This document shows, in pieces, positions 23,973 through 55,575 of a DNA stretch of 55,575 bases. Position numbers and translations under genes: made by a program. Location of the stretch: the IMG/VR virus record IMGVR_UViG_3300001765_000143. One strand, written 5' to 3'. Under the pieces are notes generated by a model that saw only the letters and a program-made list of their open reading frames with translations, was not told the origin of the DNA and made no database searches. The DNA is from a virus. How positions within the stretch are numbered: the first letter of the stretch is position 1; every line of letters starts with the position of its first letter.

Positions 23973-24941
23973 TTATAGTCTCGAATCGAAATAATCTCGG
24001 TACAGATCATAAGTTTCATTTCTAGCAGAGTGTTTGCAATACTCAATCTCCTGTTGCAGAGCTACTGGATCATACTCACTCAAATCCCAATCTATATTAT
24101 ACTCGCCAGCTTCTGCCAGTAGTTCCTCGTAGGTTTCTACGTCATTCATTAGCTTAAGCCAGTTGGTATAATTTGCGTCATAAGGAATATTGTACTTCTC
24201 AGCAAGTTTAAGCAACTCCTCGCTTCCTTCTGACCCTAGCATAGTATCGTAAACCCTTTGAGACATAATAAGCATCGCCTCTCTCGCACTATCCATATTC
24301 CTTTGCATTTGGATTGCTTGAGTAGGGTTTATTAGTAACTTAACTATCGCCCTATGATTTTCACGATAGGCAGAAGCGAGTGCTGTATCGCCGTCTTTAT
24401 CTTGAGCCGTTATGTCCGCATTATAAGCTAATAGCAGTCTGACAATTTCAGTATGTCCGTTATTAGCTGCAAGCAATAAAGGCGTATGATCCCAGTCGTT
24501 CCTAGCGTTTACATTAGCACCATGCTCTAATAGGAACTTAGTAGCTTCAAGACGACCAGAACCAGCAGCGAACATCAAAGGTGTATCTTCATGCTCATAT
24601 CTAATGTCAACATCAATACCTAAATCTAGTAACCTTTGAATTTCAGCAAAGTTTTTTCTTTCTACAGCGTTCAAGAAGTTATCCGCTGGGGATTGATAAG
24701 TGTTATTTATTTTATACCAGCTATTGATAAGTCCTTGTGCTTTAACCGCACTTTGGAACTCCCAACTTAAAGCAGTTTCGTTCATGTTTTTTAATTCGTA
24801 GTTACATGAACCTATTGTATCACAAATAGCCTCTAATGCCAAAGGATATAAAGCTTTTGAGTTGTTATTTTCTTCGCCGAAATCAGCTAAGTTAGTTATG
24901 TAATTATTTGCTATTATTGGTATTTGTTTTTGAATACTCAT
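23973..24941 (-). CDS. Ankyrin-repeat protein
   Basis: At least 3 consecutive ANK repeats: DTPLMFAAGSGRLEATKFLLEHGANVNARNDWDHTPLLLAANNGHTEIVRLLLAYNADITAQDKDGDTALASAYRENHRAIVKLL. Confidence 0.9.
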   Translation of the reverse strand: MSIQKQIPIIANNYITNLADFGEENNNSKALYPLALEAICDTIGSCNYELKNMNETALSWEFQSAVKAQGLINSWYKINNTYQSPADNFLNAVERKNFAEIQRLLDLGIDVDIRYEHEDTPLMFAAGSGRLEATKFLLEHGANVNARNDWDHTPLLLAANNGHTEIVRLLLAYNADITAQDKDGDTALASAYRENHRAIVKLLINPTQAIQMQRNMDSAREAMLIMSQRVYDTMLGSEGSEELLKLAEKYNIPYDANYTNWLKLMNDVETYEELLAEAGEYNIDWDLSEYDPVALQQEIEYCKHSARNETYDLYRDYFDSRL

Positions 24942-25037: not shown

Positions 25038-25943
25038 TTACTTTTTCAATCTCAGTAATTTTGTTCTTTCTTCTTTAATAAGTTGGATATATTCCTCAAG
25101 AGTCATATCATCAATGCTTTTATTTATTAAATTTTCTCTAAAAGAAACCAAGATTTGATTAAACTCTGCTTCTAACTCATCATAATCAATCTTCAATCGC
25201 GGCTTATCTTCGTTATAAATAAAATAGTTATTGTCATCAGGAATTGTCATTAAAAAAATACTGCTATAAAAATATAACATATCTTCTTTATTTTTTTTTA
25301 AATCACCTATTTTACACCATAAATTTTTTTCTAAACAATTTAGTATTTTTCCCTTTAGTTTCGTTAATTCATCATCAAAAACTTTTTGCATCATATCGTC
25401 TGCAAAATAACAATTTTTAAGTACAGGGCTATTAATTAAAAAACCTTCACATAGACAATAGAGCGATATTGTCTGCCCTTTGTATAAATTAGCTAAACTA
25501 GATCGGTATTCTTTATCAAAATAAGCATCAATATAATAAAACATTTCATTTGTTTCTAAACGAAGATAATATTGCTCACCAATACCTCTATTAATTGATT
25601 CTATTATACCAGTTACAAATAAGAACTGACCTCTATACTTCTCATCAGCTTTTATTTCATTTGCGAAATAATCCGCAAAAAGTTTAGTTGCATTAACATT
25701 TATTGCATTTTCGTTTACAGATGAAGAAAGTATTTTATAAATAAACGTCTCTAGAAGCTCATTTTGTTGATTATTTAATATTATTTTTGTAGATTTACTA
25801 TTAGGCGATAATTCAATTTCAGTTATATTTTTCTTATTAAAACTTGACGAGACAAAGTAAGTATCTAATTTTTTAGATACAAACCATACAAGAATTAAAG
25901 CTATTATAATCGATAATAATAATAGCTTTTTTTTAGTTTGCAT
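25038..25943 (-). CDS. N-terminally anchored protein with OB-fold (tRNA_anti-like) domain, paralogue A
   Basis: TM segment LLLLSIIIALILVWFV; ATKLFADYFANEIKADEKYRGQFLFVTGIIESINRGIGEQYYLRLETNEMFYYIDAYF...GQTISLYCLCEGFLINSPVLKNC. Confidence 0.6.
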   Translation of the reverse strand: MQTKKKLLLLSIIIALILVWFVSKKLDTYFVSSSFNKKNITEIELSPNSKSTKIILNNQQNELLETFIYKILSSSVNENAINVNATKLFADYFANEIKADEKYRGQFLFVTGIIESINRGIGEQYYLRLETNEMFYYIDAYFDKEYRSSLANLYKGQTISLYCLCEGFLINSPVLKNCYFADDMMQKVFDDELTKLKGKILNCLEKNLWCKIGDLKKNKEDMLYFYSSIFLMTIPDDNNYFIYNEDKPRLKIDYDELEAEFNQILVSFRENLINKSIDDMTLEEYIQLIKEERTKLLRLKK

Positions 25944-27341: not shown

Positions 27342-27986
27342 TTATCTGTTGTATTTTTCTAAAATTTCTTCTGTTAGATTACTAATTTCTTTTGAAGCTA
27401 AGGCATCTTTAGCAAAGTCCTCAATAACTGTTGAACCTATTGCAGCGGTTTCTACATAAGAAACTCTTTGGCAAATATGACTTTCTAAAACATCCATACC
27501 GTAATGCTCTAAGGCCTGCGCTACATCTCTACCTACCGCCGTATTAACTATCTTTCTATTAATTAAAAAAGCGCACTTTATATCTTTTATTCCTTCTAAA
27601 GGTTCCGAAACTTCTTTTATTAAGCTTACAACTTCGCTAGCTGCCCATATGTCGTAAGGAGATGGTTGCACAGGCATTATAACAAGATCGCTGGAAACAA
27701 TTGCTGATTTAGCTACATCATAAATACGAGGTGGTCCATCTATAATTATATGATCATAATCCTTGCTTAATTTCTTAATTTCCTTATGAATTATTGGTTT
27801 TGTAATGCTAACTACAGTAAATATTCCCTCCTTTCTTCTAATTGAAGCCCAATCAAGAGAGCTATTTTGTGGATCCGCATCTATTAAAAGTACTTTATGC
27901 TTCTTTAAAGCTAAAGCAGTAGCTACATTAATTGATAGTGTAGTTTTGCCTACACCGCCTTTTTGATTTAAAAATGATATAATCAT
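27342..27986 (-). CDS. parA: ParA/ParF-type partition ATPase (type Ib)
   Basis: Deviant Walker A NQKGGVGKTT, LLIDADPQ, IIIDGPP; 214 aa. Confidence 0.9.
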   Translation of the reverse strand: MIISFLNQKGGVGKTTLSINVATALALKKHKVLLIDADPQNSSLDWASIRRKEGIFTVVSITKPIIHKEIKKLSKDYDHIIIDGPPRIYDVAKSAIVSSDLVIMPVQPSPYDIWAASEVVSLIKEVSEPLEGIKDIKCAFLINRKIVNTAVGRDVAQALEHYGMDVLESHICQRVSYVETAAIGSTVIEDFAKDALASKEISNLTEEILEKYNR

Positions 27987-28488: not shown

Positions 28489-28544
28489 ATAACTACGCAG
28501 AGCTAAATGTTAACTTTGAGAGAAAATAATTAATTGGAGTCGTG

Positions 28545-29453
28545 ATGAAATTTTTGGTCAATATAGTTTTACCAGCTACTGTGGTTTGTATTATTATAGT
28601 CATTACTATAAATGTGTTAAGGGATAAAAACCAGCTACAAATTTATGTAGCACCAACGATTGGTAACGAGGAAATAGTCGATAATAAGCAGAATAATTCA
28701 AGATTACGTTTTACAGATAAACAAAGCAAATTCATGCACTTACTTCTTAATGAAGATATCAATAAATACATAAACTACAAAGATGCAGGTACTTTGTATC
28801 GAGACATTATTAAAGATCGGAATATAGTTAAAGTTAAAGCAAGTAAGCTTTTTAATGATTATCATTCAAATGAAATTAAAGCAGATAATTTATATAGAGA
28901 TAAAGAAATAATACTTACTGGTACTATTTCTTCTATTGATCGCAGTATAGGTAATAATTATTATCTTTCCTTGTCAACAAATGAAATGTTTTATACTGTA
29001 CAAGCCCATTTTGGAGAAGAATATAAATCTATATTAGCTGAATTAACAAAGGGTCAAAAATATACAATGCATTGTATGGGGAATGGAATGTTAATACAAT
29101 CACCCATATTAAAAAATTGTAAACCCATCCAAGTATGGATTGATTCAGAAGTAGAAAGTTTATTTTTTACATTAAGCAGAGCTATTGATAGTAATAAAAG
29201 TATTAAAGAAATGCTAGAAGATAAAAAAGGTATGCAAGCATTTATACTAATAGGCGGTTTTATTCTAGCTTTAAATGAGGATAGCCCTTTGTTGGATAGC
29301 AGCGATATTGACAAAAAAGAAAAGTTATTTGAGACAGAAGTCAAAGAATTTTCTAATTTCATACAAAAAATAACACCTCAAATAAAAGAACAAAACCTAG
29401 GTGTTAAAGATGTTATTCACCTTTATAAAGAACATAAAAAAATAAATAAGTAA
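28545..29453 (+). CDS. N-terminally anchored protein with OB-fold (tRNA_anti-like) domain, paralogue B
   Basis: ASKLFNDYHSNEIKADNLYRDKEIILTGTISSIDRSIGNNYYLSLSTNEMFYTVQAHF...GQKYTMHCMGNGMLIQSPILKNC; ATG at 28545 (the track GTG is at 28542). Confidence 0.6.
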   Translation: MKFLVNIVLPATVVCIIIVITINVLRDKNQLQIYVAPTIGNEEIVDNKQNNSRLRFTDKQSKFMHLLLNEDINKYINYKDAGTLYRDIIKDRNIVKVKASKLFNDYHSNEIKADNLYRDKEIILTGTISSIDRSIGNNYYLSLSTNEMFYTVQAHFGEEYKSILAELTKGQKYTMHCMGNGMLIQSPILKNCKPIQVWIDSEVESLFFTLSRAIDSNKSIKEMLEDKKGMQAFILIGGFILALNEDSPLLDSSDIDKKEKLFETEVKEFSNFIQKITPQIKEQNLGVKDVIHLYKEHKKINK

Positions 29454-29457
29454 AAAT

Positions 29458-29856
29458 ATGGCACTTTTAAACGAACACTCAACTGTAAAAAAGTTTATAA
29501 AATTTGGCTTTACCGAAGACCAAGCAGAATCTATTGCTGAAGCAATAAATGAGCAAAATAAAGAGTTAGCTACTAAGAGTGATGTTGCTTTACTTAAATC
29601 TGAGCTTCAGTTAGTTGAACTTAAACTCGAATCTAAAATTGATGGTGTAGAAAGTAGGCTTGAGTCGAGCATAACTAAGCTTGAGTCTAAAATTGATGGT
29701 GTAGAAAGTAGGCTTGAGTCTAAAATAGATAAGCTAGAATCTAAACTTGATTCTGGATTCAATAGCATTAATACTAATTTGAAGTGGATCAGCTTTCTTG
29801 TTATAGCTGTTCTTACTCCTATTTTAGGTTTATTAATAAAAGACTTGTTCTTTTAA
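29458..29856 (+). CDS. Coiled-coil, C-terminally anchored protein (DUF1640-like)
   Basis: FGFTEDQAESIAEAINEQNKELATKSDVALLKSEL..., LESKIDGVESRLES repeats, C-terminal TM segment WISFLVIAVLTPILGLLI. Confidence 0.6.
   Translation: MALLNEHSTVKKFIKFGFTEDQAESIAEAINEQNKELATKSDVALLKSELQLVELKLESKIDGVESRLESSITKLESKIDGVESRLESKIDKLESKLDSGFNSINTNLKWISFLVIAVLTPILGLLIKDLFF
29626..29756 (+). repeat. 54-bp tandem repeat (2.4 copies) inside the coiled-coil gene
   Basis: Units at 29626-29679 and 29680-29733, partial unit at 29734-29756 (ct.ga.tctaaaattgatggtgtagaaagtaggcttgagtc...). Confidence 0.85.
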
Positions 29857-37447: not shown

Positions 37448-37882
37448 ATGACAAAAACAAAAAGCCATCTTTTTCAAAAAGGTAGTGTCGCTAATCCCAA
37501 GGGGAGACCTAAAGGAACAGTTAGCGAATACAAAAAGAAATTCATGGAGATACAGAAGTTAGCGGCTAATGATGCATGCGCTGTATATAATGAAATTCGA
37601 GAAAAGATGCTAATGGGTGAATCATGGGCTTATCAATTATATGTTAAGGACTTTATTCCTAAAAGAGCGTTTGAACCGACTATCTTAGTTGAGATCGAGA
37701 AAGGTAAGAATAGGGGGGATTCAGTTATAGAAGCATTGCCACAGTTTGTAGAGCTTACGCATGATGAAGCAATGAACGAGATTAGGACATTGAAAGGCCT
37801 TGATCCAGAAGCTAACGCAGGACTAAGTAGCATAAAAATTACACATAGCATAAAGCGCAATGAAAACGAGATGAAATGTTAA
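37448..37882 (+). CDS. terS: Terminase small subunit candidate (DUF5681-like)
   Basis: FQKGSVANPKGRPKGT motif; position directly upstream of and overlapping terL. Confidence 0.55.
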   Translation: MTKTKSHLFQKGSVANPKGRPKGTVSEYKKKFMEIQKLAANDACAVYNEIREKMLMGESWAYQLYVKDFIPKRAFEPTILVEIEKGKNRGDSVIEALPQFVELTHDEAMNEIRTLKGLDPEANAGLSSIKITHSIKRNENEMKC

Positions 37883-39174
37883 CAAACGAGCATGAACTTG
37901 ATATCCAAATGCCCGAATGGATTTATCCTATTTATGAAAGACATTATGCTTTCATAGTAGGATATGGTGGTAGAGGCGGTGCAAAATCTTTCTCTATTGC
38001 CGATTATTTGATATCGCAGAGTTTTGACCGCTCTAACTCTAATTGTTATTTCTTATGTGCAAGAGAGATACAATCTTCTTTGTTAGCTAGTGTATATTCA
38101 GTTATAGATATGCAAATTAGAGACCTAGGAGTATCGAAATTCTTTAGCATTACAAAACAAGGGATAACTAATAAAGTTACTGGCGTTAAAATTATTTTTC
38201 GTGGTTTATGGAAAGACCCTGATGCTATCAAAGGTATTCCTAACTTAAAAATTATATGGGTGGATGAGGCGTCTAGTATTTCTAAAAGGAGTTGGAATAT
38301 TTTACCTCCTACGGCAACTAGAAATAAAGGATGTCAGATTATTGTTACATTCAATCCTGATTTTAAAACAGATATTGTTTACGATGAGTTTATTACAAAC
38401 AATAATAGAAAGAACACATTTGTAAAAAAAGTCTCGTACCTAGACAATCCATTTCCGTTGCCACAAGAATTTTACGATGAGTTAGAAGCTTTAAAAGAGC
38501 GTGACTATGAAGAGTATTTACATGTATATGAGGGTCATTGTATCTCTAATTCTCAAATCAAAATCTTCAAAAGAGGTACTTATTGGGATGTTTTAGATGA
38601 AAAAACTTACGTGGAGCATGATAACGTTGAGCTAAAGTTTGGTCTCGACTTAGGATTTACTCCAGCACACCCTACTTTTGGTGTACGTGAATATGTACAT
38701 GATGGTAGTTTATATGTAACGCATGAAATGGTAGAAACAGGACTTGATACCGATTTAATACCTGATTTTCTTATCAAACATTTACCGCAAGTAGAGCATC
38801 ATACTATTTGGGTGGATTCTTCAAGACCAGAGACCATATCAGCAATCAATCGTAAGTATGTTGATAGTATCAGACAATCACTTGATGCTAAAGGAGTTGA
38901 GAAAGGACCAGGTTCTGTTGAAGATGGAATAGAACATTTAAAGTCTTACAAGATGATATATATTCATCCTCGTTGTGAAAGGCTTATCGACAACTTTGAC
39001 AGATATTCTTTTAAAACAGACAGAAAGGGTAATATATTGCGAGATATTGAAAAAGCTAATGATGACGGAATAGATGCCCTGCGTTACGCAGAAGAACAAA
39101 CAATGAAAAACAAGTCTATCGATTATAGTAAATGGGATATGGCTGGTTTAGCAAGTATAGGGTTTAGAAGATGA
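37876..39174 (+). CDS. terL: Terminase large subunit (PBSX-type)
   Basis: Walker A GYGGRGGAKS, Walker B KIIWVDEA, C-terminal nuclease region with DDGIDALRY. Confidence 0.9.
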   Translation: MLTNEHELDIQMPEWIYPIYERHYAFIVGYGGRGGAKSFSIADYLISQSFDRSNSNCYFLCAREIQSSLLASVYSVIDMQIRDLGVSKFFSITKQGITNKVTGVKIIFRGLWKDPDAIKGIPNLKIIWVDEASSISKRSWNILPPTATRNKGCQIIVTFNPDFKTDIVYDEFITNNNRKNTFVKKVSYLDNPFPLPQEFYDELEALKERDYEEYLHVYEGHCISNSQIKIFKRGTYWDVLDEKTYVEHDNVELKFGLDLGFTPAHPTFGVREYVHDGSLYVTHEMVETGLDTDLIPDFLIKHLPQVEHHTIWVDSSRPETISAINRKYVDSIRQSLDAKGVEKGPGSVEDGIEHLKSYKMIYIHPRCERLIDNFDRYSFKTDRKGNILRDIEKANDDGIDALRYAEEQTMKNKSIDYSKWDMAGLASIGFRR

Positions 39175-40601
39175 AAACATTACAACAATTAGGAAATAAA
39201 ATCACTTCGGTTTTTAGAAGCGACAACTGGATCAATTCCTCCACGGGTCTTGGGTTATTAAGCGGAAGGGTAGGAAACACAAGAATTAAAGGCTCTACAT
39301 ATCTCTCTTATTCGGATTTAAGCGAGATGTATTACGGTAACGGTCTTGCTAAAAGGATTGTTAACTCTTTTGTAGATGATGCCTTGCGCAATAATTTCTT
39401 AGTATGTGGTAACGATAAAGTAAAAGATGCATTTAAAAAGTTAGCTTTACCAAAAGTAATTAAAGAAGCATGTTATTTTAGTAGATTATACGGAGGCTCA
39501 ATCATAGTGGCTTTTTTAGATGATGGACTAGACTTAAAAGAGCCTGTTTCTGATACTAGGATAAATAAGATAATTAGCTTTAGAGTGTTCGATAAAAGTC
39601 AAATATCTTGGCAAGAGGCTGATCTTAACAGAGATTTTTTAAGCCCCAATTTCGCTTTACCTGAGTTTTACACTATTACATCATTTAAAAATTCTGCTGA
39701 TACTTCGATACTTAAGATACACGCCTCAAGATGTAAAGTACTTGATGGGATTACTACAAGTCATTTAAAAAGAAGAACAAATTTAGGATGGGGAGATTCT
39801 GTATTACAAGCGTGTTATGACTCTTTAAGATACTACGGTATAGTTGCTGAGAATTCATCAGAAATAATCAATGATTTTATACAAGTTATTATTAAAATGA
39901 ATGGTTTGGCGCATCAAATAATAAAAGAAGGTGGTAAGGAAGCAGTTGCCGCACGTATGGATGCTATAGATGTATCGAGATCAAATTCAAATTTAATCTT
40001 TTTAGACGCAGAAAAAGAAGATTACGAGAAAAAATCTAGCTCAGTTGCAGGTCTGGCTGATTTATGGGATAGGTTCTCAGAATCTGTTTGCGCTGCTACG
40101 GGATACCCAGCTACTAGATTATTTGGTAGATCGCCAGGAGGGTTAAATTCAACTGGAGATAGCGATTTAAAAAACTATTATGATTTAGTTTCTGCTTACC
40201 GTAGCGATGAAATAGAGCCAATAATAAATTGGATTCTAAATTTCATAACTCATCAACAAGAATGGGACAGTGATAAAGATATTGAGTGGTCTTTTGCTTC
40301 TTTAGTTGAGCAAACACCGCTTGAAGATGCCAAATTAAAGAAATTATATGCCGAGATAGACTGGGGCTATATTGACAGAGGAGCAATAGACGCTGGTAAC
40401 ACTTGGCAAGAACGCTTTGGCAAAGGTGAATTTCAGGAGAATATACAATTGAAACAATTAGAGCGTGATGATGATTTTACCGACCAAGAAGAGCTAGGAA
40501 TTATAAATGATCTTAAAAAGGAAGAGATGAAGATAAAGGAAGAGTCTAATACAGAGCGGAAAGCAAAAAAGGTGCTAGATAGCGTATTTAATAGTTTATA
40601 A
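39171..40601 (+). CDS. Portal protein (DUF1073-like)
   Basis: 476 aa, ATGA overlap with terL; N-terminal SDNWINSSTGLGLLSGR...LSEMYYGNGLAKRIVNSFVDDALRN. Confidence 0.8.
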   Translation: MKTLQQLGNKITSVFRSDNWINSSTGLGLLSGRVGNTRIKGSTYLSYSDLSEMYYGNGLAKRIVNSFVDDALRNNFLVCGNDKVKDAFKKLALPKVIKEACYFSRLYGGSIIVAFLDDGLDLKEPVSDTRINKIISFRVFDKSQISWQEADLNRDFLSPNFALPEFYTITSFKNSADTSILKIHASRCKVLDGITTSHLKRRTNLGWGDSVLQACYDSLRYYGIVAENSSEIINDFIQVIIKMNGLAHQIIKEGGKEAVAARMDAIDVSRSNSNLIFLDAEKEDYEKKSSSVAGLADLWDRFSESVCAATGYPATRLFGRSPGGLNSTGDSDLKNYYDLVSAYRSDEIEPIINWILNFITHQQEWDSDKDIEWSFASLVEQTPLEDAKLKKLYAEIDWGYIDRGAIDAGNTWQERFGKGEFQENIQLKQLERDDDFTDQEELGIINDLKKEEMKIKEESNTERKAKKVLDSVFNSL

Positions 40602-40617
40602 AAACAGTCTCTTTAAA

Positions 40618-41463
40618 ATGCAAACACAAGATAATTACATCACTCTTATTGCCACAATATCAAAACTTGCAGATAAGTTACAAGAACAGCAATACATCTC
40701 TTCGCTGCAAGTAAATGATGAGGACATAACTTTTATTTACAATGATGGGTTTAAGCAAAAATTCTCTTTTCCTCAAAACAATAATACCGACACTTTTGAC
40801 TCAAATCTTATTCTTGAAGAGCTAAAGAGAATCTTTAATAAGATTCTTGAAGCTAAATTCACGGAAATTCTGCAAAATTTACAGGATCATCTATCAAAAG
40901 AACTAAAGACATCAATGCCAGTTTCTAAAGCAGGTATTGATGGAAAAGATGCCGATGAGCAGAAGATCATTAAAGAATTAGAAAAAACCATAGCAATAAA
41001 ATTAGAGGCTGGGCTTTTAGATATCAAGCAATCTATACCAGAGCCTATAATTCCAAAGGACGGTAAAGATGCGGATGAAGAAGCCATAACAAAGGCTTTA
41101 CGTTATTATATAAGGCAAGAGAGTGACAAAGTTAATACCGAGTTGTTTGCTAATATTAATGAGGTTATGAACTCAATCCCTATCCCAAAAGACGGAGAGA
41201 ATGGCAGGGATGGAAAAGATGCAGACGAAAAAGCTATAAAAGATGCCTTATTTTTAGAGTTAAGTAATCAAATAGCTATTTTTCAAACCTTGTTTGATAA
41301 CAAAATCACTGAAGGACTGCAAAGAATTATAGCATCCATCCCAGTTCCGAAAGATGGGGTTGACGGTCATGATGGTACAAGTGTTGATGATCAAGTAATT
41401 ATTGATGCAATTTGGTGTATTGCACGAAAAATCACAAGAGTTGATCAAACAAGAGTTACTTAA
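40618..41463 (+). CDS. Periodic-repeat virion-associated protein, N-terminal frame (split gene, continues in 41402-42619)
   Basis: Repeated IP.PKDG.DG.DADE units about every 45 aa; the frame ends 36 nt after an A5 run at 41427-41431. Confidence 0.6.
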   Translation: MQTQDNYITLIATISKLADKLQEQQYISSLQVNDEDITFIYNDGFKQKFSFPQNNNTDTFDSNLILEELKRIFNKILEAKFTEILQNLQDHLSKELKTSMPVSKAGIDGKDADEQKIIKELEKTIAIKLEAGLLDIKQSIPEPIIPKDGKDADEEAITKALRYYIRQESDKVNTELFANINEVMNSIPIPKDGENGRDGKDADEKAIKDALFLELSNQIAIFQTLFDNKITEGLQRIIASIPVPKDGVDGHDGTSVDDQVIIDAIWCIARKITRVDQTRVT

Positions 41464-42619
41464 AGTACTACTGGCTAAAATAGAAGAGATCAGCGCCACG
41501 TTACAACCACTGCGTGGCGAGAAAGGCAACGATGGTAAGGACGCAAACGAAGAAAAAATAACCCAAGAAGTTTTAAAGGTCATTAGTCAGGATACAAAAC
41601 AGTCTCAAGCTTTGCTACAAAAAGAACTAGAGCTGGGATTAAAAGATATCAAGTCATCTATCCCAGTTCCGAAAGACGGAGTTGATGGTAAGGATGGAAA
41701 GTCAATCAAAGGCAAAAAAGGTGATAGGGGCAATGGAATAATAGATGCAAAGATAAATGACGAAGATCGCCTTATTATTGAAACCGATGACAAAACTATA
41801 GATGCAGGCGAGGTATCCATTAAGCGTTTTTCTCGTGGAGGAGGCGGAGGAGGTGGTAGTTTTTTTTACACAAACGAGTTGCCAATGCCAGCTGATGTTG
41901 GTCTTCTTCCTAAGGGTACAAAGTTTAAAGATACCGATTTAAAAGTACTATTTACAAAGTTACTATATGGCTATAATTTTCCTAAATTCGTTGATTTTTT
42001 GATTAGCGGATTATTAGATAATGTAGAAATAGGCTATTCAATAATTGCAGGAGATTATCAGGCTAATTTTATGATTAGCGACCCAGAATTATTACGACCT
42101 GATTCAATTAGTATCTTAAAAGAAGGACAAGTTTTATTAGAGAATCTGCCTAATGTCTCGCCAGTTAATGTTACTCTAGCAGGAGAAACAAAAAATACGA
42201 TAGACGTTATTACTTTCGAGATATTTGCCTATGACACAACAGGGGTCAGTTTTAACAAGTATTTCACTTTAAATTACAAATACAAAATTTATTACGGAGA
42301 ATATGATGATGATATTACTGACACTGGTTTACCCAATCCATTAATTGTACTCAGAGCAAAAGAATTAGTTGTAGATATTTACGGCGAGTATTTTTTTCAG
42401 AATATCCCTTTAGGCTCTAATTATAAATGGTTTTGTTATCCTTCTATACTAGGCGAAAACTATATTTTCTATGATACTGTAAGCGATATTGCCTTAATTT
42501 TAAATGATGTATTGAAGCTCAATATAACTAATGAACATGGGTTGGTTATTGAATATAACTGTTACCGTACTTTAAATGAAATACACGAAGATATTATAAT
42601 GAAGGTAAAAAATGGATAG
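41402..42619 (+). CDS. Periodic-repeat virion-associated protein, C-terminal frame (+1 relative to 40618-41463)
   Basis: Continues the repeats (LRGEKGNDGKDANEE, IPVPKDGVDGKDGKSIKGKKGDRGNG), a G7 linker, then a ~260-aa beta-rich C-terminal domain. Only a TTG/ATG start without SD. Confidence 0.6.
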   Translation: MMQFGVLHEKSQELIKQELLKVLLAKIEEISATLQPLRGEKGNDGKDANEEKITQEVLKVISQDTKQSQALLQKELELGLKDIKSSIPVPKDGVDGKDGKSIKGKKGDRGNGIIDAKINDEDRLIIETDDKTIDAGEVSIKRFSRGGGGGGGSFFYTNELPMPADVGLLPKGTKFKDTDLKVLFTKLLYGYNFPKFVDFLISGLLDNVEIGYSIIAGDYQANFMISDPELLRPDSISILKEGQVLLENLPNVSPVNVTLAGETKNTIDVITFEIFAYDTTGVSFNKYFTLNYKYKIYYGEYDDDITDTGLPNPLIVLRAKELVVDIYGEYFFQNIPLGSNYKWFCYPSILGENYIFYDTVSDIALILNDVLKLNITNEHGLVIEYNCYRTLNEIHEDIIMKVKNG

Positions 42620-43649
42620 TAATACAATTAGAGTGTTATCGTTTGATGGCGGAGGAGTTAGGGGGATAATAACCTCAACTCTACTTGATCTCTTTTGCAA
42701 TCAAGCAGGCATACCCGCAAATCAGATATATAAATATTTTGACATTATCTGCGGCACTTCCATAGGTGGTATTCAAGCTTTAGCGTACGCTAAAGGTTTA
42801 ACCCCATCTTATGTTAAAGATATGTTAATCAATAATGCATCCAGTATTTTTAATTGCACTTATCCAATACCGAGTGGAGGACAAGCAGGTATTGGTACTT
42901 GGGCTGGATATTTAAGTGGAACTTACAGTTCTTTATATTCGCAAACACCACTGGCTAATTTGATTAATGATACTTTCGGTCTAGATACCATTAGCAGTTA
43001 TCAAACAAATGTACTAATTCCAGCTTTTCAACGTTCTAATAGTAATGGAGTTACCAATGTTCCTGTTTATTTTTCTAATATATCTGCTTTGCTTGTTCCG
43101 TATTTATCTGGTCAAAGTGAATTATCGGCTAATATTGCACTAGCAACTAGTGCAGCTCCTGTTTATTTTCCACCAGCTACATTTAATGGATGTACTTATG
43201 TTGACGGAGGAATTTTTTTAAATAATGCTTCTTCAATGGCTTTGTCAGTACAAAGAGCCATTAGATCAACGGCAAATCGTTTTTGTGTTCTTTCAATAGG
43301 TACAGGTTTAGGTAGTATTGGTTATATTCCTAATGAATCTGTTGCCAATAAAAAAACATTATTAAGAGGAGCTCTTGATAATCTTAAGACAATAAAAATG
43401 GTAATGGATGTCTCTATGAGTATTCCACCAGAAGGAGTATCAGTAGAGCAACAGCTTATTGCTGATTATACAGTTGCAAATTCTTATTATTGTAGGATGC
43501 AATACCCGATTGATCTAAGTCAAGAGCCTGATAGTTCATTGGATAATCCTAGCTCTGAATTTATTCAATATATGCAAGATTCAGCGGCGATATATTTTAA
43601 TAATGATATTGCTAATATAACTAATTTTACAGGTCATTTATTAGCATGA
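42612..43649 (+). CDS. Patatin-like phospholipase
   Basis: Oxyanion FDGGGVRG, nucleophile GTSIGG (GxSxG), catalytic Asp YVDGGIFLNN; overlaps both neighbours. Confidence 0.9.
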   Translation: MDSNTIRVLSFDGGGVRGIITSTLLDLFCNQAGIPANQIYKYFDIICGTSIGGIQALAYAKGLTPSYVKDMLINNASSIFNCTYPIPSGGQAGIGTWAGYLSGTYSSLYSQTPLANLINDTFGLDTISSYQTNVLIPAFQRSNSNGVTNVPVYFSNISALLVPYLSGQSELSANIALATSAAPVYFPPATFNGCTYVDGGIFLNNASSMALSVQRAIRSTANRFCVLSIGTGLGSIGYIPNESVANKKTLLRGALDNLKTIKMVMDVSMSIPPEGVSVEQQLIADYTVANSYYCRMQYPIDLSQEPDSSLDNPSSEFIQYMQDSAAIYFNNDIANITNFTGHLLA

Positions 43650-45889
43650 AAGGCGTAAAGGTAAGTAATTTTATAGTTCCGATGAGTGTTACAGACACTT
43701 ACCCTACCAATTTGGATATATTTGGCAGGGGAGGAATACATAGCGTTGACACAATTCCAAATAGGGACTCCATAACTACGGAGCGACGTAGCGAGGGCAT
43801 GCTTTCTTTTACCAAAAACAACGAGTCTATGTACGCCCTTTTAGGAGGGATTACTAATGACAAATGGTTTAAGTTATTTGATTTCTCGGATAATAAGATC
43901 AATTTCAATATTGCCTGCGATACTAATTATGTATTACTTGGCAATAAAGACGGAGTTGCTAAGCCGTCCCCCACATTAATAGATGTACAATTTGATATTA
44001 TCAATTTGCGTCGCAAGATTGATAAAGTAGGGATATTAGAATATAACCATATATGGATTGGAGATTATACCAACAGATCAGTTGCACAAAAGACTATCGG
44101 TGTAAATAATTTGCCTTTATTAGGAGCGGCTCAATTTCCTTTACCTTTTAGCTTAGAATCTATTGCTTTACCAAACCCTACATTTAGCCCTACTTCGCCG
44201 TTAGCTTATATAATGAGTGGGGCGTGGTTGCCTCAAATATATGCTGGTAATCCTGGCAAATTAGATTATACGCAGACAGAAACGATAATATCTAGCTCCT
44301 TAGCTATGACTCAAATTAAGGTAGCTCAGGCACTAAAAAGAATCGATCAAGGCGGATTAATAGTTAAAAGTAAAAACATAAGTTTTTTATGGGAAAATCC
44401 ACTTGCTAATGCAATCCCCGAAGAAGTTGCTCAATTGTACGATTACGGAACGACATATACTTTTGATAAGGCGCAAGCATTAGATGAGATAGATGCGGGT
44501 TTACTAAAGCAAAATGTCGGACAAGGGGTCAAAGGTGATGGGCAATTAGTAAAGGCTATTTCAGGAGAGGATTATGTCGATGCGGTTGTAAATCCTATAG
44601 GATTTGTTTGTGTTATAGATCCTTTATTTCCCAATGTTTCAGGTCGTAAACTTATATCTCCGTCAACTCAAAGGGTAAGAAAAAAACAACCTAATGAATT
44701 CAGTGCGTTTACAGATGTAACAGTAGCAACACCTATTTTTGATGTATTGGCTTTAAAAAGTAAATATTTAAATGTTGGGAGTATAACACAAAAGCTTATT
44801 AAGGGTGATAATGAGGGGAATATTGTTGCTGCTATTGATGGGGAAGATTATATATCTCCTTCCGATGAAACATATGCGACTCTCGCTGAAACCGTTGCGA
44901 ATATATTGGGTTCGAAAATTATTAAAAATGAACAACAAGGAACTGCGCCTTTAGCAACGATACAAGAAGCAAATATTGTCGCAAAAAAAACTCGTGAAGA
45001 AACGCATGGCACCTCTAGCACGGCACTTGATGTTGCTGCTGGAACTCTTGGGGTAGCTTTAGTTGTGGGTGCAGCAGGTGCTGCTTCAGTTGTAGCTTTA
45101 CCTGGTGTGGCTTTAGCTGGAACGGCAATAGCGGCTGCCGCACTTTTTGATTATATATTTAAACCTTTCGGTTCAAAGGAAGGAAGGAATTTACAAGCTG
45201 TACCAGAGCTTACGAATGAACAAAAAATTAATTATACATATGGTTTGTTAACAAAAGGCGGTTTTCTTAATACAAACAATACTTATAAGTCAGTTGATTT
45301 AAATGATTATGCTTATTTAAGCAGTCCTTGGATTGGTGAAAATGGACAATTTAATTTTAAATTTTGTGATACCCTGCAACATACTTTAGGGTTTGATGTT
45401 TACGATAGAGGAAAGGGTACATTATGGTTTGATTCATGGGGAAAATCAAGAGATACAACATTCGGTGAAAAAAGCGAACCAGGACTTCGTATTTTCTCAT
45501 GGAATTCTGGGGGTGATGGTGTTGATTACCAAGGTGAAGGTCTCGCTCCGTTACATATTGGGTTATTTGGATATGATGCACCAAGAAGTCAAAATGTAAA
45601 TAATAGATATAATGGGTTTATTCTTAGATCGGAATTTTATAATCTACCCGGTAATTTAGAAGATAAAACCCCTGAAAATTTTGGTCTTTATTTAGCTTCT
45701 AAAAGTTTTAGCAGTAGCCAACCTAAAGCTGGTTTTGATAGTCTCAATACTATTTTTGAATATGATCTTACTAATTTTAATTTTGAAAAACCTGTAAAAT
45801 TTAATAAGAATTTCATTTTACCAGTAATAAAAAAAGCAGATATTCCTTTGAATCCACCGCTAGGTATGGTATTATTAGTGGAATTTTAA
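43646..45889 (+). CDS. Large fibre-like protein with internal Gly/Ala-rich hydrophobic segment
   Basis: N-terminal VPMSVTDTYPTNLDIFGRGGIHSVDTIPNRDSITTERRSEGML...NDKWF (fibre-type signature); TLGVALVVGAAGAASVVALPGVALAGTAIAAAALF at ~45040-45145. Confidence 0.5.
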   Translation: MKGVKVSNFIVPMSVTDTYPTNLDIFGRGGIHSVDTIPNRDSITTERRSEGMLSFTKNNESMYALLGGITNDKWFKLFDFSDNKINFNIACDTNYVLLGNKDGVAKPSPTLIDVQFDIINLRRKIDKVGILEYNHIWIGDYTNRSVAQKTIGVNNLPLLGAAQFPLPFSLESIALPNPTFSPTSPLAYIMSGAWLPQIYAGNPGKLDYTQTETIISSSLAMTQIKVAQALKRIDQGGLIVKSKNISFLWENPLANAIPEEVAQLYDYGTTYTFDKAQALDEIDAGLLKQNVGQGVKGDGQLVKAISGEDYVDAVVNPIGFVCVIDPLFPNVSGRKLISPSTQRVRKKQPNEFSAFTDVTVATPIFDVLALKSKYLNVGSITQKLIKGDNEGNIVAAIDGEDYISPSDETYATLAETVANILGSKIIKNEQQGTAPLATIQEANIVAKKTREETHGTSSTALDVAAGTLGVALVVGAAGAASVVALPGVALAGTAIAAAALFDYIFKPFGSKEGRNLQAVPELTNEQKINYTYGLLTKGGFLNTNNTYKSVDLNDYAYLSSPWIGENGQFNFKFCDTLQHTLGFDVYDRGKGTLWFDSWGKSRDTTFGEKSEPGLRIFSWNSGGDGVDYQGEGLAPLHIGLFGYDAPRSQNVNNRYNGFILRSEFYNLPGNLEDKTPENFGLYLASKSFSSSQPKAGFDSLNTIFEYDLTNFNFEKPVKFNKNFILPVIKKADIPLNPPLGMVLLVEF

Positions 45890-45914
45890 TACTAATAAAT
45901 ACTATATATAGATC

Positions 45915-46187
45915 GTGGCACTAAAATATAAACCCCTGTTAACTATAAAGGAAAAGACTCTTACTGAGCCTGCCGTTTTTCAATCGTTATCAACTGAGGT
46001 AACTGGTACGGCAAACCAAGTTAAAGTAACACCAGTTGCAAGTAGCGAATATAGCGGAGAAGATTATCAAATAGGGTTACCTGATAATGTGCTTTTGCCT
46101 GGACAATATGTTGGTATCCCGAAAGTTACGGTTTTACCAGTAGACCCTCCTTTATCTTCATTTTTTATATTGGAGAAAACAGTCTGA
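45915..46187 (+). CDS. Small fibre-associated protein (GTG start)
   Basis: (M)ALKYKPLLTIKEKTLTEPAVF...GTANQVKVTPV...QIGLPDNVLLPG; the N-terminus is paralogous to the next small ORF. Confidence 0.4.
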   Translation: MALKYKPLLTIKEKTLTEPAVFQSLSTEVTGTANQVKVTPVASSEYSGEDYQIGLPDNVLLPGQYVGIPKVTVLPVDPPLSSFFILEKTV

Positions 46188-46189
46188 TA

Positions 46190-46336
46190 ATGAAAAAGTT
46201 TAGTCCATTAATCACAATAAAAGAGAAAACAGCAAATAGTCCTGCCGAATTCTTAGAACTTATGACCAGCGAGTCATTGGAAATTGACGAAGATGTATAT
46301 GCTCTCCTACAAGCCTTAAATGATGAGGTGTTATAA
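46190..46336 (+). CDS. 48-aa ORF (below the track cutoff), N-terminal paralogue of 45915-46187
   Basis: MKKFSPLITIKEKTANSPAEFLELMTSESLEIDEDVYALLQALNDEVL; its stop overlaps ATG 46336. Confidence 0.3.
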   Translation: MKKFSPLITIKEKTANSPAEFLELMTSESLEIDEDVYALLQALNDEVL

Positions 46337-48162
46337 TGCCATTATTTCTAAAGTCATTTGATCCTACTGTAGATATATTCGGAAATAATCAGATATTTAG
46401 ATTTAATAATTCCTCAACTCCGTCAGATAATGACGGCGGTTTGTCTTTAGTTAATATGTTTGCTCCTACAGCTACTACTAAGGCTCTTATTAATTTAGAT
46501 TTTGTAAATTCAAGTTTTAAAGGTTTTAGATTCCAACAAGAGTCTTCACTAACTTCAATATATGGTAATTTCTCGCTACAGGCATATTCAAAGTTCGGAA
46601 CGACATCTGATATTTTCAAATATGATGAACAAACTAATACTTTAAATTTTCTAAAAAATACCTCAATTTTAGGTTCTGCTTTAGCTAGTCAGGCTTATGT
46701 TGATAATCATAATTGGTTATCAACCGATATAACGGATTTTAATATTGCCGTAACTAATATTATTACTCCATATAACTATTCTACTAAAGTTTACGTTGAT
46801 GCGCATACTTGGTTATCATCAAGTATTACTGATTTAGCAACAACTGTAAAAGCTTATACATTAAATAGTTTTGCTCTACCTACAGTGGATTTAAATTTAA
46901 ACTCTAAGAAAATTACGAGCTTAAGTAATGGAACGATAGCTACCGATGCAATTAACTTAGGTCAATTACAGGCATTGGGTTTATCAAGTTTAACAACTAA
47001 TGGGTTTCTAACACGCATTGCGGCTAATAGCTATCTTAACAGAACTATAGCGGTTGGTACTGGTCTTGGTATTGCAAATGCTGATGGTGTTGCAGGGAAT
47101 CCAACACTTTCTTTAACAAATTCAGGAGTAGTATCTGGTTCATATACTAATGTTAATGCTACTGTAGATAGCTATGGTCGTATTACTTCAATATCTAACG
47201 GTAGCTCAAGTGGAACAATTACACTCACTGGAGCAATTACCGGTTCTGGTAGTCTTGGTAGTTCTATTTCAACATCGCTAAATAGTATACAATCAATCAA
47301 CAATCTCTTAGCTTTTGAAACAACCACTAACACTGTTGCAAATTATGATTTTCGAAACAGTCTTCTAGGCACACCGTATGGAAGAATTTATTTAAATTTT
47401 AAAAAAACAACAACTAATGGTGATGTTAGACAGTTTATTTTGGAAAATGCGTTTGACAGCAATCAAGCCGGATATACCAACGCATTTTCTTTAGGTTACA
47501 AGTTTAATAGTGCTTACACCAATATTTTTACTTATCAAAGTACTTTAAATGAGTTTCAGTTTTACTGTTTAACTTCTTTTGACGCTGGGGTTAGTCTTAA
47601 AAACAATAATATTCAAAATGTAGGTAATCCTATTCTTGCGCAAGATGCCGCGACTAAGGCTTATGTGGATAGTGCTATTGTAACACCAATATTACCTTCT
47701 GTTATGCACGGATATCTATATAATAATCAAAGTACAAATATAGCAACTGGGGATCACATAAAATTTGATAATGCTGCTTTTACTAGAGGCACTGCTATAA
47801 CTCTTGATACATTTAGTACTTATAGTAACGCAGCTAATACTGCATCTATAGGACGTATCACTTTAGCAGCTGGAAAAACATACAAACTTACTGCTATAGC
47901 ATGTACTGCAAGTTTTGCTTCGACAAGTGCTTATTTAGGTTTGAAATGGCATAATAATACTACTAACACTCCTTTAGGAACAGTTAATACTTGGTGGGGA
48001 GGAGGTTTTAATTATACATCAGGAGGGGCAGTGGTGGCTTATATTACTACTACTGTTAGTACAAGGGTTGAGTTGCGTATTAATAATGTTTTATCCCTTA
48101 CATATCTATACGGCACTAGTGATTCAAATTCAGCAACATGGTTTACGGTAGAAGAAATATAA
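46336..48162 (+). CDS. Tail-fibre-like protein with C-terminal C1q/TNF-like jelly-roll candidate
   Basis: Fibre repeats (ASQAYVDNHNWLSTDITDF / KVYVDAHTWLSSSITDL), INLGQLQAL, NSGVVSGSYTNVNATVDSYGRITSISNG. C-terminal ...GDHIKFDNAAFTRG...GRITLAAGKTYKLTA...VELRINN...WFTVEEI. Confidence 0.6.
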   Translation: MPLFLKSFDPTVDIFGNNQIFRFNNSSTPSDNDGGLSLVNMFAPTATTKALINLDFVNSSFKGFRFQQESSLTSIYGNFSLQAYSKFGTTSDIFKYDEQTNTLNFLKNTSILGSALASQAYVDNHNWLSTDITDFNIAVTNIITPYNYSTKVYVDAHTWLSSSITDLATTVKAYTLNSFALPTVDLNLNSKKITSLSNGTIATDAINLGQLQALGLSSLTTNGFLTRIAANSYLNRTIAVGTGLGIANADGVAGNPTLSLTNSGVVSGSYTNVNATVDSYGRITSISNGSSSGTITLTGAITGSGSLGSSISTSLNSIQSINNLLAFETTTNTVANYDFRNSLLGTPYGRIYLNFKKTTTNGDVRQFILENAFDSNQAGYTNAFSLGYKFNSAYTNIFTYQSTLNEFQFYCLTSFDAGVSLKNNNIQNVGNPILAQDAATKAYVDSAIVTPILPSVMHGYLYNNQSTNIATGDHIKFDNAAFTRGTAITLDTFSTYSNAANTASIGRITLAAGKTYKLTAIACTASFASTSAYLGLKWHNNTTNTPLGTVNTWWGGGFNYTSGGAVVAYITTTVSTRVELRINNVLSLTYLYGTSDSNSATWFTVEEI

Positions 48163-48201
48163 TAAATTTAATCAATTTAATTTAATTTAAGGAAAAAAAA
48201 T

Positions 48202-48516
48202 ATGTCAAAAATAAAAGATGATACTGGTACTCCGGGATCAGAAAAATTAGAAAAAATAACACCAGTCGAGATTAATACTATAAATACTATGTTGCCAATG
48301 GATTATGAGGCTCTTGAGTATCTCTCTTGGTTTATGACAGATAGCCAAAACGTACAGAATTGGGCGGGAAATATTTTTAGAGGCGGTATCGATACTAGTG
48401 ACCCAAGACTTGTAAGTTTACTTTCCGCTGCAAATAAATCCATAAAAGAGACGGAAGACGATATTGCTAAAATAAAAGAGTGTTTGGCAAAAATTATACC
48501 AGTAAATTCAAAATAA
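48202..48516 (+). CDS. Hypothetical protein (possible fibre assembly factor, by position)
   Basis: 104-aa ORF after the fibre gene. Confidence 0.4.
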   Translation: MSKIKDDTGTPGSEKLEKITPVEINTINTMLPMDYEALEYLSWFMTDSQNVQNWAGNIFRGGIDTSDPRLVSLLSAANKSIKETEDDIAKIKECLAKIIPVNSK

Positions 48517-48538
48517 TTTAAATTAAAGAGAGGATAAT

Positions 48539-48739
48539 ATGAAGGATGTAAATAGCGTGAATGATATAGCAAAAATTTTACAACTTCTGCCAAAATATAC
48601 GCAAGCATTGAATAATGATAGCGTTTTATATTTTTCGGACGAAGAGGCGATGGCTAGTCCTGAACGTAAGGTTTTGGTAGTTAAAGATATAATGATGATC
48701 GAAGAATTGCTTACGTATCTAAAGAAAAGCTTAGCTTAA
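48539..48739 (+). CDS. Hypothetical protein
   Basis: 66-aa ORF with SD gagagg. Confidence 0.4.
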   Translation: MKDVNSVNDIAKILQLLPKYTQALNNDSVLYFSDEEAMASPERKVLVVKDIMMIEELLTYLKKSLA

Positions 48740-48760
48740 ATAAGATATTGATAAGTAGAA

Positions 48761-49600
48761 ATGTATAAATTAGGCTTGCTAGTTACTCTTCCTACAACTG
48801 CAAAGCTTAGGTATGAGGAGTATTTACTAGATCTAGTTAGAAAAGTTAGTTTTCTTATAAAGAAAACGTTAGTTATTGATGGTGTTTTTACGGAAGATTA
48901 TAAGAAACTCACAAGAACTGACAATGATTTTAATTATGATTTTGAGAATATAATTAAACTTATCGAAGCTAAAATAGTTTCTGAATTACATCTTTTCTTT
49001 AAAAAAATCACTCGTGCCGCTGTTATTACAGAGAAATTTAATTATAAGGCCGTTGAAAAGTCATTAAACGGCGTCAAGAAATCAATCCCTACTCTAAGGA
49101 ATGCTAAAGTTCAGAGTGAGATGAAGATGTGGGTATCCGAGAATGTAAGATTAATAAAAACAATCCCAGAGAAAATGCTCACTCAAGTTGAAGAGATTGT
49201 ATACACAGCTGTTAGAGCTGGCGTGACCCATACAGAACTTAGTAAAAGATTAGTTGAGTCTTTTGGTATATCTAAAAGAAGAGCCGTTATTATCGCAAGG
49301 GATCAGATCAATAAACTAAGTGGCAACCTAACAAGAGTAAGAAATTTAGAGCTAGATATTGATGAATATAAATGGCTAACAAGTAGGGATGATAGATGCA
49401 GACCTTCTCACAAAGTACTAGAAGGCAAGATTTGTTCTTGGGAAGATGTTAATGTGTACAAGTCTGTTGATAAATCAGTGGATAAAGATGTGGATAACTC
49501 AAGAAAATGGTTGCAACGCTCGTCAATAGGCGGTACAATATCTCATCCGTCTCAAGATGTGCTATGTAGATGCACATCTATTCCAATCATAAAAATCTAA
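48761..49600 (+). CDS. Head morphogenesis protein (SPP1 gp7 / Mu F-like)
   Basis: ARDQINKLSGNLTRVRNLELDIDEYKWLTSRDDRCRPSHKVLEGKI. Confidence 0.8.
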   Translation: MYKLGLLVTLPTTAKLRYEEYLLDLVRKVSFLIKKTLVIDGVFTEDYKKLTRTDNDFNYDFENIIKLIEAKIVSELHLFFKKITRAAVITEKFNYKAVEKSLNGVKKSIPTLRNAKVQSEMKMWVSENVRLIKTIPEKMLTQVEEIVYTAVRAGVTHTELSKRLVESFGISKRRAVIIARDQINKLSGNLTRVRNLELDIDEYKWLTSRDDRCRPSHKVLEGKICSWEDVNVYKSVDKSVDKDVDNSRKWLQRSSIGGTISHPSQDVLCRCTSIPIIKI

Positions 49601-55424: not shown

Positions 55425-55575
55425 ATGGCTATAAAAGTATACGATCCTACTCAAGTGGGTGTGATTGTTGGAACATCGCCAATAAATGGCTTTGCAGAGG
55501 ACTCTATGATTACTATTGAAATGGAAGATCCACAATATGTTGTTGCTACTGATATAAGTGGCTCTCCGACAAGAT
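55425..55575 (+). CDS. Tail tube protein (DUF3277-like), 5' part; continues at nt 79 (through the duplicated 78 nt) to 353
   Basis: ATG at 55425 gives MAIKVYDPTQVGVIVGTSPINGFAEDSMITIEMED... Confidence 0.75.
   Translation, partial: MAIKVYDPTQVGVIVGTSPINGFAEDSMITIEMEDPQYVVATDISGSPTR
55498..55575. repeat. Terminal overlap copy 2 (identical to 1-78)
   Basis: Read directly. Confidence 0.95.

Follow-up and report, generated by a model that had tools for sequence, protein, structure and literature searches.

The patatin gene and its fibre-like neighbour

This study concerns a patatin-like phospholipase gene, and the fibre-like gene directly behind it, in a viral DNA of 55,575 nucleotides (nt; IMG/VR record IMGVR_UViG_3300001765_000143). 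This whole stretch is referred to below as the window. The features on which the argument turns are the following (aa, amino acids).

42612-43649 (+): patatin-like Ser-Asp acyl hydrolase, 345 aa, ATG start, intact
42648-42665 (+): GGGVRG, oxyanion-hole/phosphate-binding motif of the patatin, aa 13-18 (sequence reading)
42753-42767 (+): GTSIG nucleophile elbow with Ser50, aa 48-52 (sequence reading)
43203-43211 (+): DGG motif with catalytic Asp198, aa 198-200 (sequence reading)
43646-45889 (+): fibre-like partner protein of 747 aa, with homology to an annotated 'tail Fiber'
43646-44020 (+): conserved N-terminal domain of the partner, NFIVP...SPTLIDVQFDIINLRRK (alignments)
45020-45160 (+): Gly/Ala-rich hydrophobic stretch of 47 residues, aa 459-505 of the partner (Kyte-Doolittle)

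The 345-aa open reading frame (ORF) matched the Pfam family PF01734 (Patatin) with 94.3 bits (E=1.4e-26; gathering cutoff 27.7), and since its N- and C-termini both match the termini of homologues the gene is full length. The preliminary description of this locus had claimed an intact patatin with all three catalytic signatures, and the domain score, the three motifs and the alignment of both ends bear this out. Its catalytic residues also hold up in a proper alignment: G13-15, G18, G48, S50, G52 and D198-G200 were invariant in 55 sequences, as in a separate alignment of 14 homologues, R17 was kept in at least 90% of the 55, and DG[GA] was found in 67 of 67 loci. The AlphaFold2 (AF2) model reached a predicted local distance difference test score (pLDDT) of 92, and its best Foldseek matches were AbCapV, CapE, Pat17 and iPLA2-beta. 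From sequence and model, the protein appears to be an intact single-domain Ser50/Asp198 acyl hydrolase with a CapV/plant-patatin fold, and lipid hydrolysis is predicted.

The patatin ATG (42612) sits 8 nt within the upstream ORF, which ends at 42619, and at the other end the four bases ATGA (43646-43649) hold both the patatin TGA and the start codon of the 747-aa ORF. Both overlaps had been described before and are read directly from the DNA. The stoichiometric co-expression deduced from them does not follow, as stop/start overlaps are commonplace in phage operons and do not establish stoichiometry. The statement that the patatin is not a free-standing moron was upheld, the gene sitting within a late structural operon.

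A promoter and terminator scan found no enrichment of promoter-like sites in the window (45 versus 56.9 +/- 7.9 in shuffles) and a single sigma-70-like match (10/12) at 42571-42600, directly upstream of the patatin start. This match could be read in favour of a lysogenic-conversion effector, made by the bacterial host and delivered to the eukaryotic cell like ExoU, VipD or Pat1/Pat2. The probably intracellular host and the service of patatins as invasion factors in Rickettsiales (PMC13134042) point the same way. We nevertheless judge such a moron very improbable: the gene overlaps both neighbours within a late operon, the window holds no surplus of promoter-like sites over its shuffles, the protein has no extra domains of the ExoU/VipD type (template modelling (TM) scores 0.27-0.35), and its obligate fibre partner would be left unaccounted for.

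No Pfam family was found for the 747-aa partner in the Pfam scan, and its PHROG matches to virion and tail proteins were weak and confined to aa 4-87. Its kinship emerged from direct comparison. Over the N-terminal half (about 360 aa) it is 41% identical to the 'tail Fiber' of MAnkyphage_25.80 (OP381185), a phage of Candidatus Megaira polyxenophila; identity to the corresponding protein of a sibling phage (L176) is 50% over 360 aa, and to the partners of Megaira phages 35-41%. More than 150 homologues were present in the protein database; a tblastn search of GenBank phages with a 144-aa partner N-terminus gave no match, which leaves this domain unanchored in any cultured phage.

Conservation among partners is concentrated at the N-terminus, where about 55 aa follow the consensus ..(Y/H)NFISPVTGR..DY.L.G....SP.LID..LD...L and hold an invariant Ser-Pro and Gly. 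In the window this domain is broken by an insertion of ~70 aa (aa 14-88), which L132 and L176 have too. Mean identity was 43% over the first 70 aa and 18% over the last 200 aa of the partner, compared with 46% for the patatin. A constant N-terminus and a variable C-terminus are a pattern typical of receptor-binding fibres, to judge from these alignments. Partner lengths range from 300 to 1500 aa across loci, and some partners carry a Peptidase_S74 intramolecular-chaperone domain.

The hydrophobic stretch at aa 459-505 contains one charged residue (Asp462) and reaches a 19-residue Kyte-Doolittle mean of up to 2.13. Segments scoring at least 1.6 were present in 32 of 40 partner homologues. Such segments are frequent across all partner types but at times resemble coiled-coil cores. 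As a lead only, we note that the stretch may be transmembrane- or fusion-peptide-like, which would be unusual in a tail fibre.

Linkage of the pair across phage genomes

To the window we added five contigs from protein look-ups and a genome-collection scan and 80 IMG/VR contigs, giving 86 loci. At 83 of these an ORF begins between -4 and +10 nt from the patatin stop (-4 nt in 69 loci; -1, +2, +4 or +10 nt in 14), and at the remaining three the contig end cuts off the downstream gene. The partner N-terminal motif was present in all of the downstream ORFs except that of L116 (IMG/VR 3300048571_000205), where a 183-aa ORF (8975-9526) overlaps the patatin by 4 nt and has a signal-peptide-like N-terminus and no fibre motif. 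In the reverse test the motif [FW]ISP[VI][TS]G[RK] was used to pull out 80 viral loci, and a patatin lay immediately upstream in every one (80/80). The motif occurred downstream of none of the 54 closest cellular patatins, taken from 185,579 species genomes. Distances between patatins and between partner N-termini were correlated (Mantel r=0.56, p=0.001). In IMG/VR, 229 contigs were confirmed through the patatin and 147 through the partner motif.

A fusion of the two proteins by a -1 frameshift at the ATGA was considered and rejected, given spacings of -1, +2, +4 or +10 nt in 14 loci. In a Rosetta-stone search for fusion proteins, covering the best 150 of 19,216 family representatives, the long matches were plant tandem patatins, secreted bacterial patatins and one phage patatin with a repeat insertion. 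The phage-type patatin P0339 (651 aa) carries a ~330-aa degenerate-repeat insertion (roughly L..LG..ID.EK.N.LT) between its catalytic core and the conserved C-terminal helices.

The preliminary description had the patatin coupled to structural genes on both sides. The counts above sustain the coupling on the downstream side. Upstream, the coupling is lineage-specific, because the gene in that position differs among relatives: Megaira phages have TerL there, others encode unrelated proteins (87 to 238 aa), and a 669-aa repeat protein occurs only in the window's own lineage. On this comparison only the downstream link of the patatin is evolutionarily meaningful. The upstream gene of the window is the following.

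40618-42619 (+): protein of ~670 aa with collagen-like/PKDGxDG repeats and a C-terminal domain, split here into two ORFs

It appears in the window as ORFs of 281 aa (40618-41463) and 405 aa (41402-42619). Run SRR931349 was also assembled independently (Logan contig L002). That assembly agrees with the window in the region of this gene, except that 11 additional nt, CCTCGGCTTAA, follow window position 41415 and restore one continuous ORF. In the sibling phage L176 the same position is occupied by one gene of 669 aa (48% identity over the C-terminal 396 aa). The split (junction 41399-41463) would thus be either an assembly error or a population variant; a programmed frameshift joining the two ORFs was rejected in favour of the 11-nt indel or assembly variant. 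Of the earlier claim of a repeat protein upstream, the overlap with the patatin stands, and the protein turns out to be encoded by a single gene of ~670 aa.

The pair was found in genomes of three kinds: E217/Pa193-like myoviruses (the window and L176), P22-portal phages of Megaira (L001 and L172-L174), and contigs with HTVC023P-like capsid_4 and an SU10 adaptor (L006-L009), whose capsid is closest to that of pelagiphage HTVC023P (38%). It lay within structural or packaging genes in every backbone inspected, and GC content was 28-42% across all loci. The patatin of the window is 75% identical to that of L006, of the capsid_4 type, and 29% identical to that of its sibling L176, while its partner resembles that of L176; the enzyme has thus been exchanged by recombination with the layout of the pair retained. 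By these layouts the pair is a mobile module that moves among three unrelated virion backbones, always in late operons.

MAnkyphage, which gave the best phage match to the patatin, is the nearest described case. It likewise has a patatin followed by a 'tail Fiber' gene with an ATGA overlap and the same partner N-terminal domain, along with homologues of a 66-aa gene described below and of several replication genes. Its patatin is only 28% identical to that of the window and belongs to a different sub-clade. The MAnkyphage genome is podovirus-like and 38 kb long, with the module placed between TerL and a P22-type portal, compared with portal to MuF in the window. The record gives gene names only, and a functional test of the pair was not found in the literature.

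The obligate, reciprocal pairing, together with a partner in which conservation centres on a short N-terminal domain, its Ser-Pro and Gly invariant, would also suit a fibre-maturation enzyme, in which the patatin-fold protein acylates, deacylates or processes that domain instead of acting on membranes. Patatin-fold (PNPLA) enzymes do include transacylases. We know of no precedent for such a maturation enzyme, however, and fibre chaperones are usually small and encoded 3' of the fibre gene. Conservation of the lipid-binding GGGxRG motif is almost complete (Gly invariant, Arg in at least 90%) and the fold remains CapV/Pat17-like. We consider this explanation very unlikely.

Kinship of the enzyme

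The best PADLOC model for the patatin was the phospholipase effector of the cyclic-oligonucleotide-based anti-phage signalling system (CBASS), matched over its full length with E=1.8e-50. The NCBIfam model CBASS_lipase (NF041079) scored 159.4 bits, under its equivalog cutoff of 200. Sequence searches of the Protein Data Bank (PDB) retrieved CapV, CapE, plant patatin and iPLA2-beta, as well as PlpD with the alignment profile only; ExoU and VipD were not retrieved at E<0.01. Foldseek gave the same ranking, with TM scores of 0.73-0.75 to AbCapV (E about 1e-20), 0.35 to VipD and 0.27 to ExoU. The closest characterised relatives, by sequence and predicted structure, are the single-domain CapV and plant patatin, not ExoU or VipD.

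The likeness to ExoU/VipD/Pat1-type patatins drawn in the preliminary description therefore does not hold at the level of kinship. With those effectors the window enzyme shares catalytic Ser-Asp dyad chemistry; they differ in being large, multi-domain and dependent on eukaryotic cofactors. The requirement for ubiquitin that it proposed to assay is unlikely, as a 345-aa single domain leaves no room for an activator-binding or membrane-localisation domain of the ExoU type.

Like the window enzyme, CapV (PDB 8zr9, 9jeh; activated by cyclic GMP-AMP, cGAMP) is a single-domain patatin fold of ~340 aa with GGGxRG, GxSxG and DGG motifs. In AbCapV the cGAMP contacts are F147, K149, D159, E207 and R279 (PMC12480259). 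In a HMMER alignment K149 and D159 correspond to Phe154 and Gly167, both conserved in the clade, and F147 to Val, the alignment of this loop being uncertain, and E207 and R279 fall outside the aligned stretch. Unlike CapV, the window patatin is phage-encoded, acidic and paired with a fibre gene. A Pfam scan of 40 window ORFs revealed no cGAS/DncV-like nucleotidyltransferase (CD-NTase) or other cyclase domain, and the neighbours of the patatin are fibre-like, portal and MuF genes. On these three counts (no cyclase among the scanned ORFs, different contacts, acidity) the protein would not itself be a CapV.

The same resemblance raises the idea of an anti-CBASS decoy or sponge, a CapV look-alike that absorbs cyclic-nucleotide alarm signals. 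The full-length PADLOC match and the NCBIfam score speak for it. That score lies below the equivalog cutoff, though, and the contacts K149, D159 and F147 are replaced in the HMMER alignment. The catalytic residues, needless in a sponge, are invariant, and the pairing with a fibre is unaccounted for. We find a decoy hardly credible.

CapV attaches to membranes through basic surfaces, and bacteria die when CapV enzymes hydrolyse their membrane phospholipids (PMC12480259). The window patatin has a computed isoelectric point (pI) of 4.6, and the fibre-linked clade is acidic throughout (median pI 4.64, range 4.05-5.47), whereas the cellular patatins closest to it are mostly basic (median 8.8); these are whole-protein values. 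This acidity would mark the patatin as something other than a CapV-style killer acting on the inner membrane.

About 720 clusters (50% identity) match the patatin profile at E<=1e-30. A neighbour-joining tree, built without support values, placed 67 fibre-linked patatins in a single clade; the 54 cellular sequences and the patatin of phage WO fell outside it. The phylogenetic placement proposed in the preliminary description was in this way obtained for the WO enzyme, by neighbour joining, and the parallel with WO drawn there did not extend to kinship. The WO patatin (Symbioviridae) resembles that of the window in having an intact catalytic dyad, in belonging to a phage of a Rickettsiales endosymbiont and in lying near structural genes. 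It is ~27% identical and, in the record examined, follows tail gene D beside an ankyrin gene and a small hypothetical gene, with no fibre partner. The WO paper describes a patatin-based lytic cassette with a holin-like gene there (PMC9203015). WO is without an endolysin; the window genome has one.

Genome, host and proposed role

Positions 1-78 and 55498-55575 of the window are identical, indicating a complete circular or terminally redundant genome of 55.5 kb. It encodes a terminase, portal, MuF, Pa193/E217-like scaffold, cement protein and capsid; a tail sheath, baseplate J, DUF2612 and beta-helix spike; and also ParA, an ankyrin-repeat protein, a C5 methylase, YqaJ and a lysozyme. By this content the window is a myovirus-like genome. 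The other genes of the patatin cassette, and two genes elsewhere that bear on its role and host, are as follows.

39171-40601 (+): portal protein, left boundary of the cassette (PF06381, E=3.8e-78)
45915-46187 (+) and 46190-46336 (+): two small ORFs of 90 aa and 48 aa with similar N-termini
46336-48162 (+): second fibre-like protein, 608 aa, with a YadA_stalk-like motif and PHROG head-decoration and tail matches
48202-48516 (+): conserved cassette protein of 104 aa, 80% identical to that of L174, also in L176, L007 and L012
48539-48739 (+): conserved cassette protein of 66 aa, homologues in L001, L006, L007, L172, L174 and L176
48761-49600 (+): MuF-like head morphogenesis protein, right boundary of the cassette (PF04233; phrog_324)
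12087-12539 (+): canonical phage lysozyme (endolysin; PF00959, E=3.5e-34), 30 kb from the patatin
23973-24941 (-): ankyrin-repeat protein (Ank_4, E=6e-25), matching a MAnkyphage region with 49% identity over 72 aa

The cassette spans ~8 kb from portal to MuF, which is the head-gene region, and the tail module does not adjoin it. A megablast search of GenBank phages with 37876-49600 gave no match, and the GTDB representative genomes do not contain the window. Homologues of the 66-aa gene occur in all three virion backbones and travel with the pair, and homologues of the 104-aa gene accompany it in several loci. The YadA_stalk-like motif of the 608-aa protein falls slightly under the Pfam cutoff (27.0 versus 28.4 bits), and over its C-terminal 190 aa identity is 54% to L174 and 62% to L176. 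The 90-aa and 48-aa ORFs have the N-terminal sequence K-x-x-P-L-[LI]-T-I-K-E-K-T in common; relatives carry genes of 226 aa and 48 aa in their place, and the 48-aa ORF matches a 48-aa gene on the Candidatus Megaera venefica contig L174.

Many window proteins match those of Megaira phages, which makes an intracellular, Megaira-like member of the Rickettsiaceae the likely host. The window helicase is 71% identical to one on the Megaera venefica contig, and several genes are 47-62% identical to MAnkyphage, among them YqaJ (57%), a 195-aa protein (62%) and a DUF5681 protein (62%). Ankyrin-repeat proteins are a marker of phages of eukaryote-associated bacteria. The earlier proposal of an intracellular Rickettsiales-type host agrees with the ankyrin protein, the helicase and the MAnkyphage matches. 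In the flanks of related loci ankyrin genes were found only in L001 and L160 and were uninformative as a host marker.

Several other parts of these genomes merit description. The segment 25000-29500 is very AT-rich (GC about 0.25). It contains ParA (27342-27986, -), and two divergent tRNA_anti-like OB-fold proteins flank it (25038-25943, -; 28542-29453, +). No integrase turned up in the Pfam scan of 40 window ORFs, which together with the ParA stretch suggests plasmid-like maintenance, as in a phage-plasmid. Scans of the window for tRNAs and Rfam families found nothing. A C5 cytosine methylase gene (18422-19477, -) overlaps an HNH_2 endonuclease gene (17443-18432, -), and the two may form a restriction-modification or anti-restriction pair. 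At 29458-29856 (+) lies a CCDC90-like coiled-coil protein with 54-nt tandem repeats (29622-29754), homologues of which occur in MAnkyphage, L173, L174 and a Rickettsiaceae metagenome-assembled genome contig (L012). A comparison of L172 (1-1523) with L173 showed one copy of a Megaira-type patatin phage bordered by RadA-like and CrcB genes. Such genes belong to bacterial chromosomes, and this flank suggests an integrated copy that could name a host.

The account we favour, tentatively, is that the patatin is a phospholipase bound to a fibre, as part of the machinery by which the virion adsorbs or penetrates. In its favour we count the reciprocal linkage, the fibre-like conservation of the partner, the mobility of the module, the intact catalytic motifs, the acidity of the enzyme, the hydrophobic segment and the separate endolysin. 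Patatin and partner would be made together, and the patatin would dock on the conserved N-terminal domain of the partner. The complex would form an auxiliary fibre of the particle and give it a local phospholipase A or lysophospholipase activity, in effect a lipid 'depolymerase'. At adsorption or penetration the enzyme would open a phospholipid barrier, whether the outer membrane of the Rickettsiales-type host, the surrounding membrane derived from the host cell, or both, and the hydrophobic Gly/Ala segment of the partner might then insert into the membrane. During assembly an acidic surface and dependence on the partner would keep the enzyme off the anionic inner membrane of the producing cell.

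Enzymes that open barriers from the virion are well known, as in tailspike depolymerases and esterases, T5 Pb2 with its fusogenic segment and muralytic domain, and the phospholipase A2 of parvovirus VP1. The analogy is functional only: none of these is a patatin, and in the window enzyme and fibre are separate polypeptides.

A number of observations weigh against a fibre-bound virion enzyme. The location of patatin and partner in the particle is deduced here from gene content, and no report of a virion-borne patatin in tailed phages was found in the literature. The AF2 model of the partner is poor (pLDDT 42) and uninformative. The tail module of the window has a beta-helix spike or fibre of its own (8619-10184). 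The Rosetta-stone search found no patatin-fibre fusion protein among the 150 representatives that it covered. Should patatin and partner bind each other, the exchange of patatin alleles implies that their interface must tolerate swapped partners. The similarity of the partner N-terminus in myovirus- and podovirus-type genomes also argues against docking on a backbone-specific virion site.

The main rival is a late egress or lysis factor outside the virion, in which the patatin and a membrane-inserting partner would dissolve bacterial and/or surrounding eukaryotic membranes at the end of infection. It draws strength from the killing of bacteria by CapV relatives through membrane phospholipid hydrolysis (PMC12480259), the patatin-based lytic cassette proposed for WO (PMC9203015), the late operon, the transmembrane-like segment of the partner and a likely host that lives within a eukaryotic cell. 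However, the genome has a canonical endolysin in another module 30 kb away, and the patatin never adjoins lysis genes in the loci inspected. A partner of 300 to 1500 aa, with a variable receptor-binding-like C-terminus and sometimes an S74 domain, is unlike a holin or spanin. The acidic enzyme would be expected to bind anionic bacterial membranes poorly, and the WO patatin belongs to another clade and another context. We regard egress as rather unlikely, and keep the fibre-bound phospholipase as our tentative preference.

A patatin beside a 'tail Fiber' is already annotated in the MAnkyphage record, and patatin is familiar in phage WO. We found no description in the literature of the obligate pair, its spread over more than 100 viral contigs, its affinity to CapV, its acidity or its separation from the WO clade. 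These results document that a clade of phage late genes is structurally close to the commonest CBASS effector. The regulatory logic differs, the phage enzymes being linked to a partner protein rather than to a cyclic-nucleotide sensor.

Work on phage WO has raised the question of how phages pass the extra lipid membranes around obligate intracellular bacteria, where the WO patatin has so far been no more than a candidate. A phage-only clade of acidic CapV-like patatins, tied to a fibre-like gene in three virion architectures that include Megaira-linked phages, offers a concrete two-protein unit. The boldest generalisation is that phages of intracellular, Rickettsiales-type bacteria carry a particle-borne, fibre-tethered, CapV-related phospholipase and a membrane-inserting fibre with which they cross lipid barriers, eukaryote-derived membranes included; in this full form we think it improbable. 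If true, it would represent a phage entry or escape device aimed at phospholipid bilayers rather than at polysaccharide or peptidoglycan.

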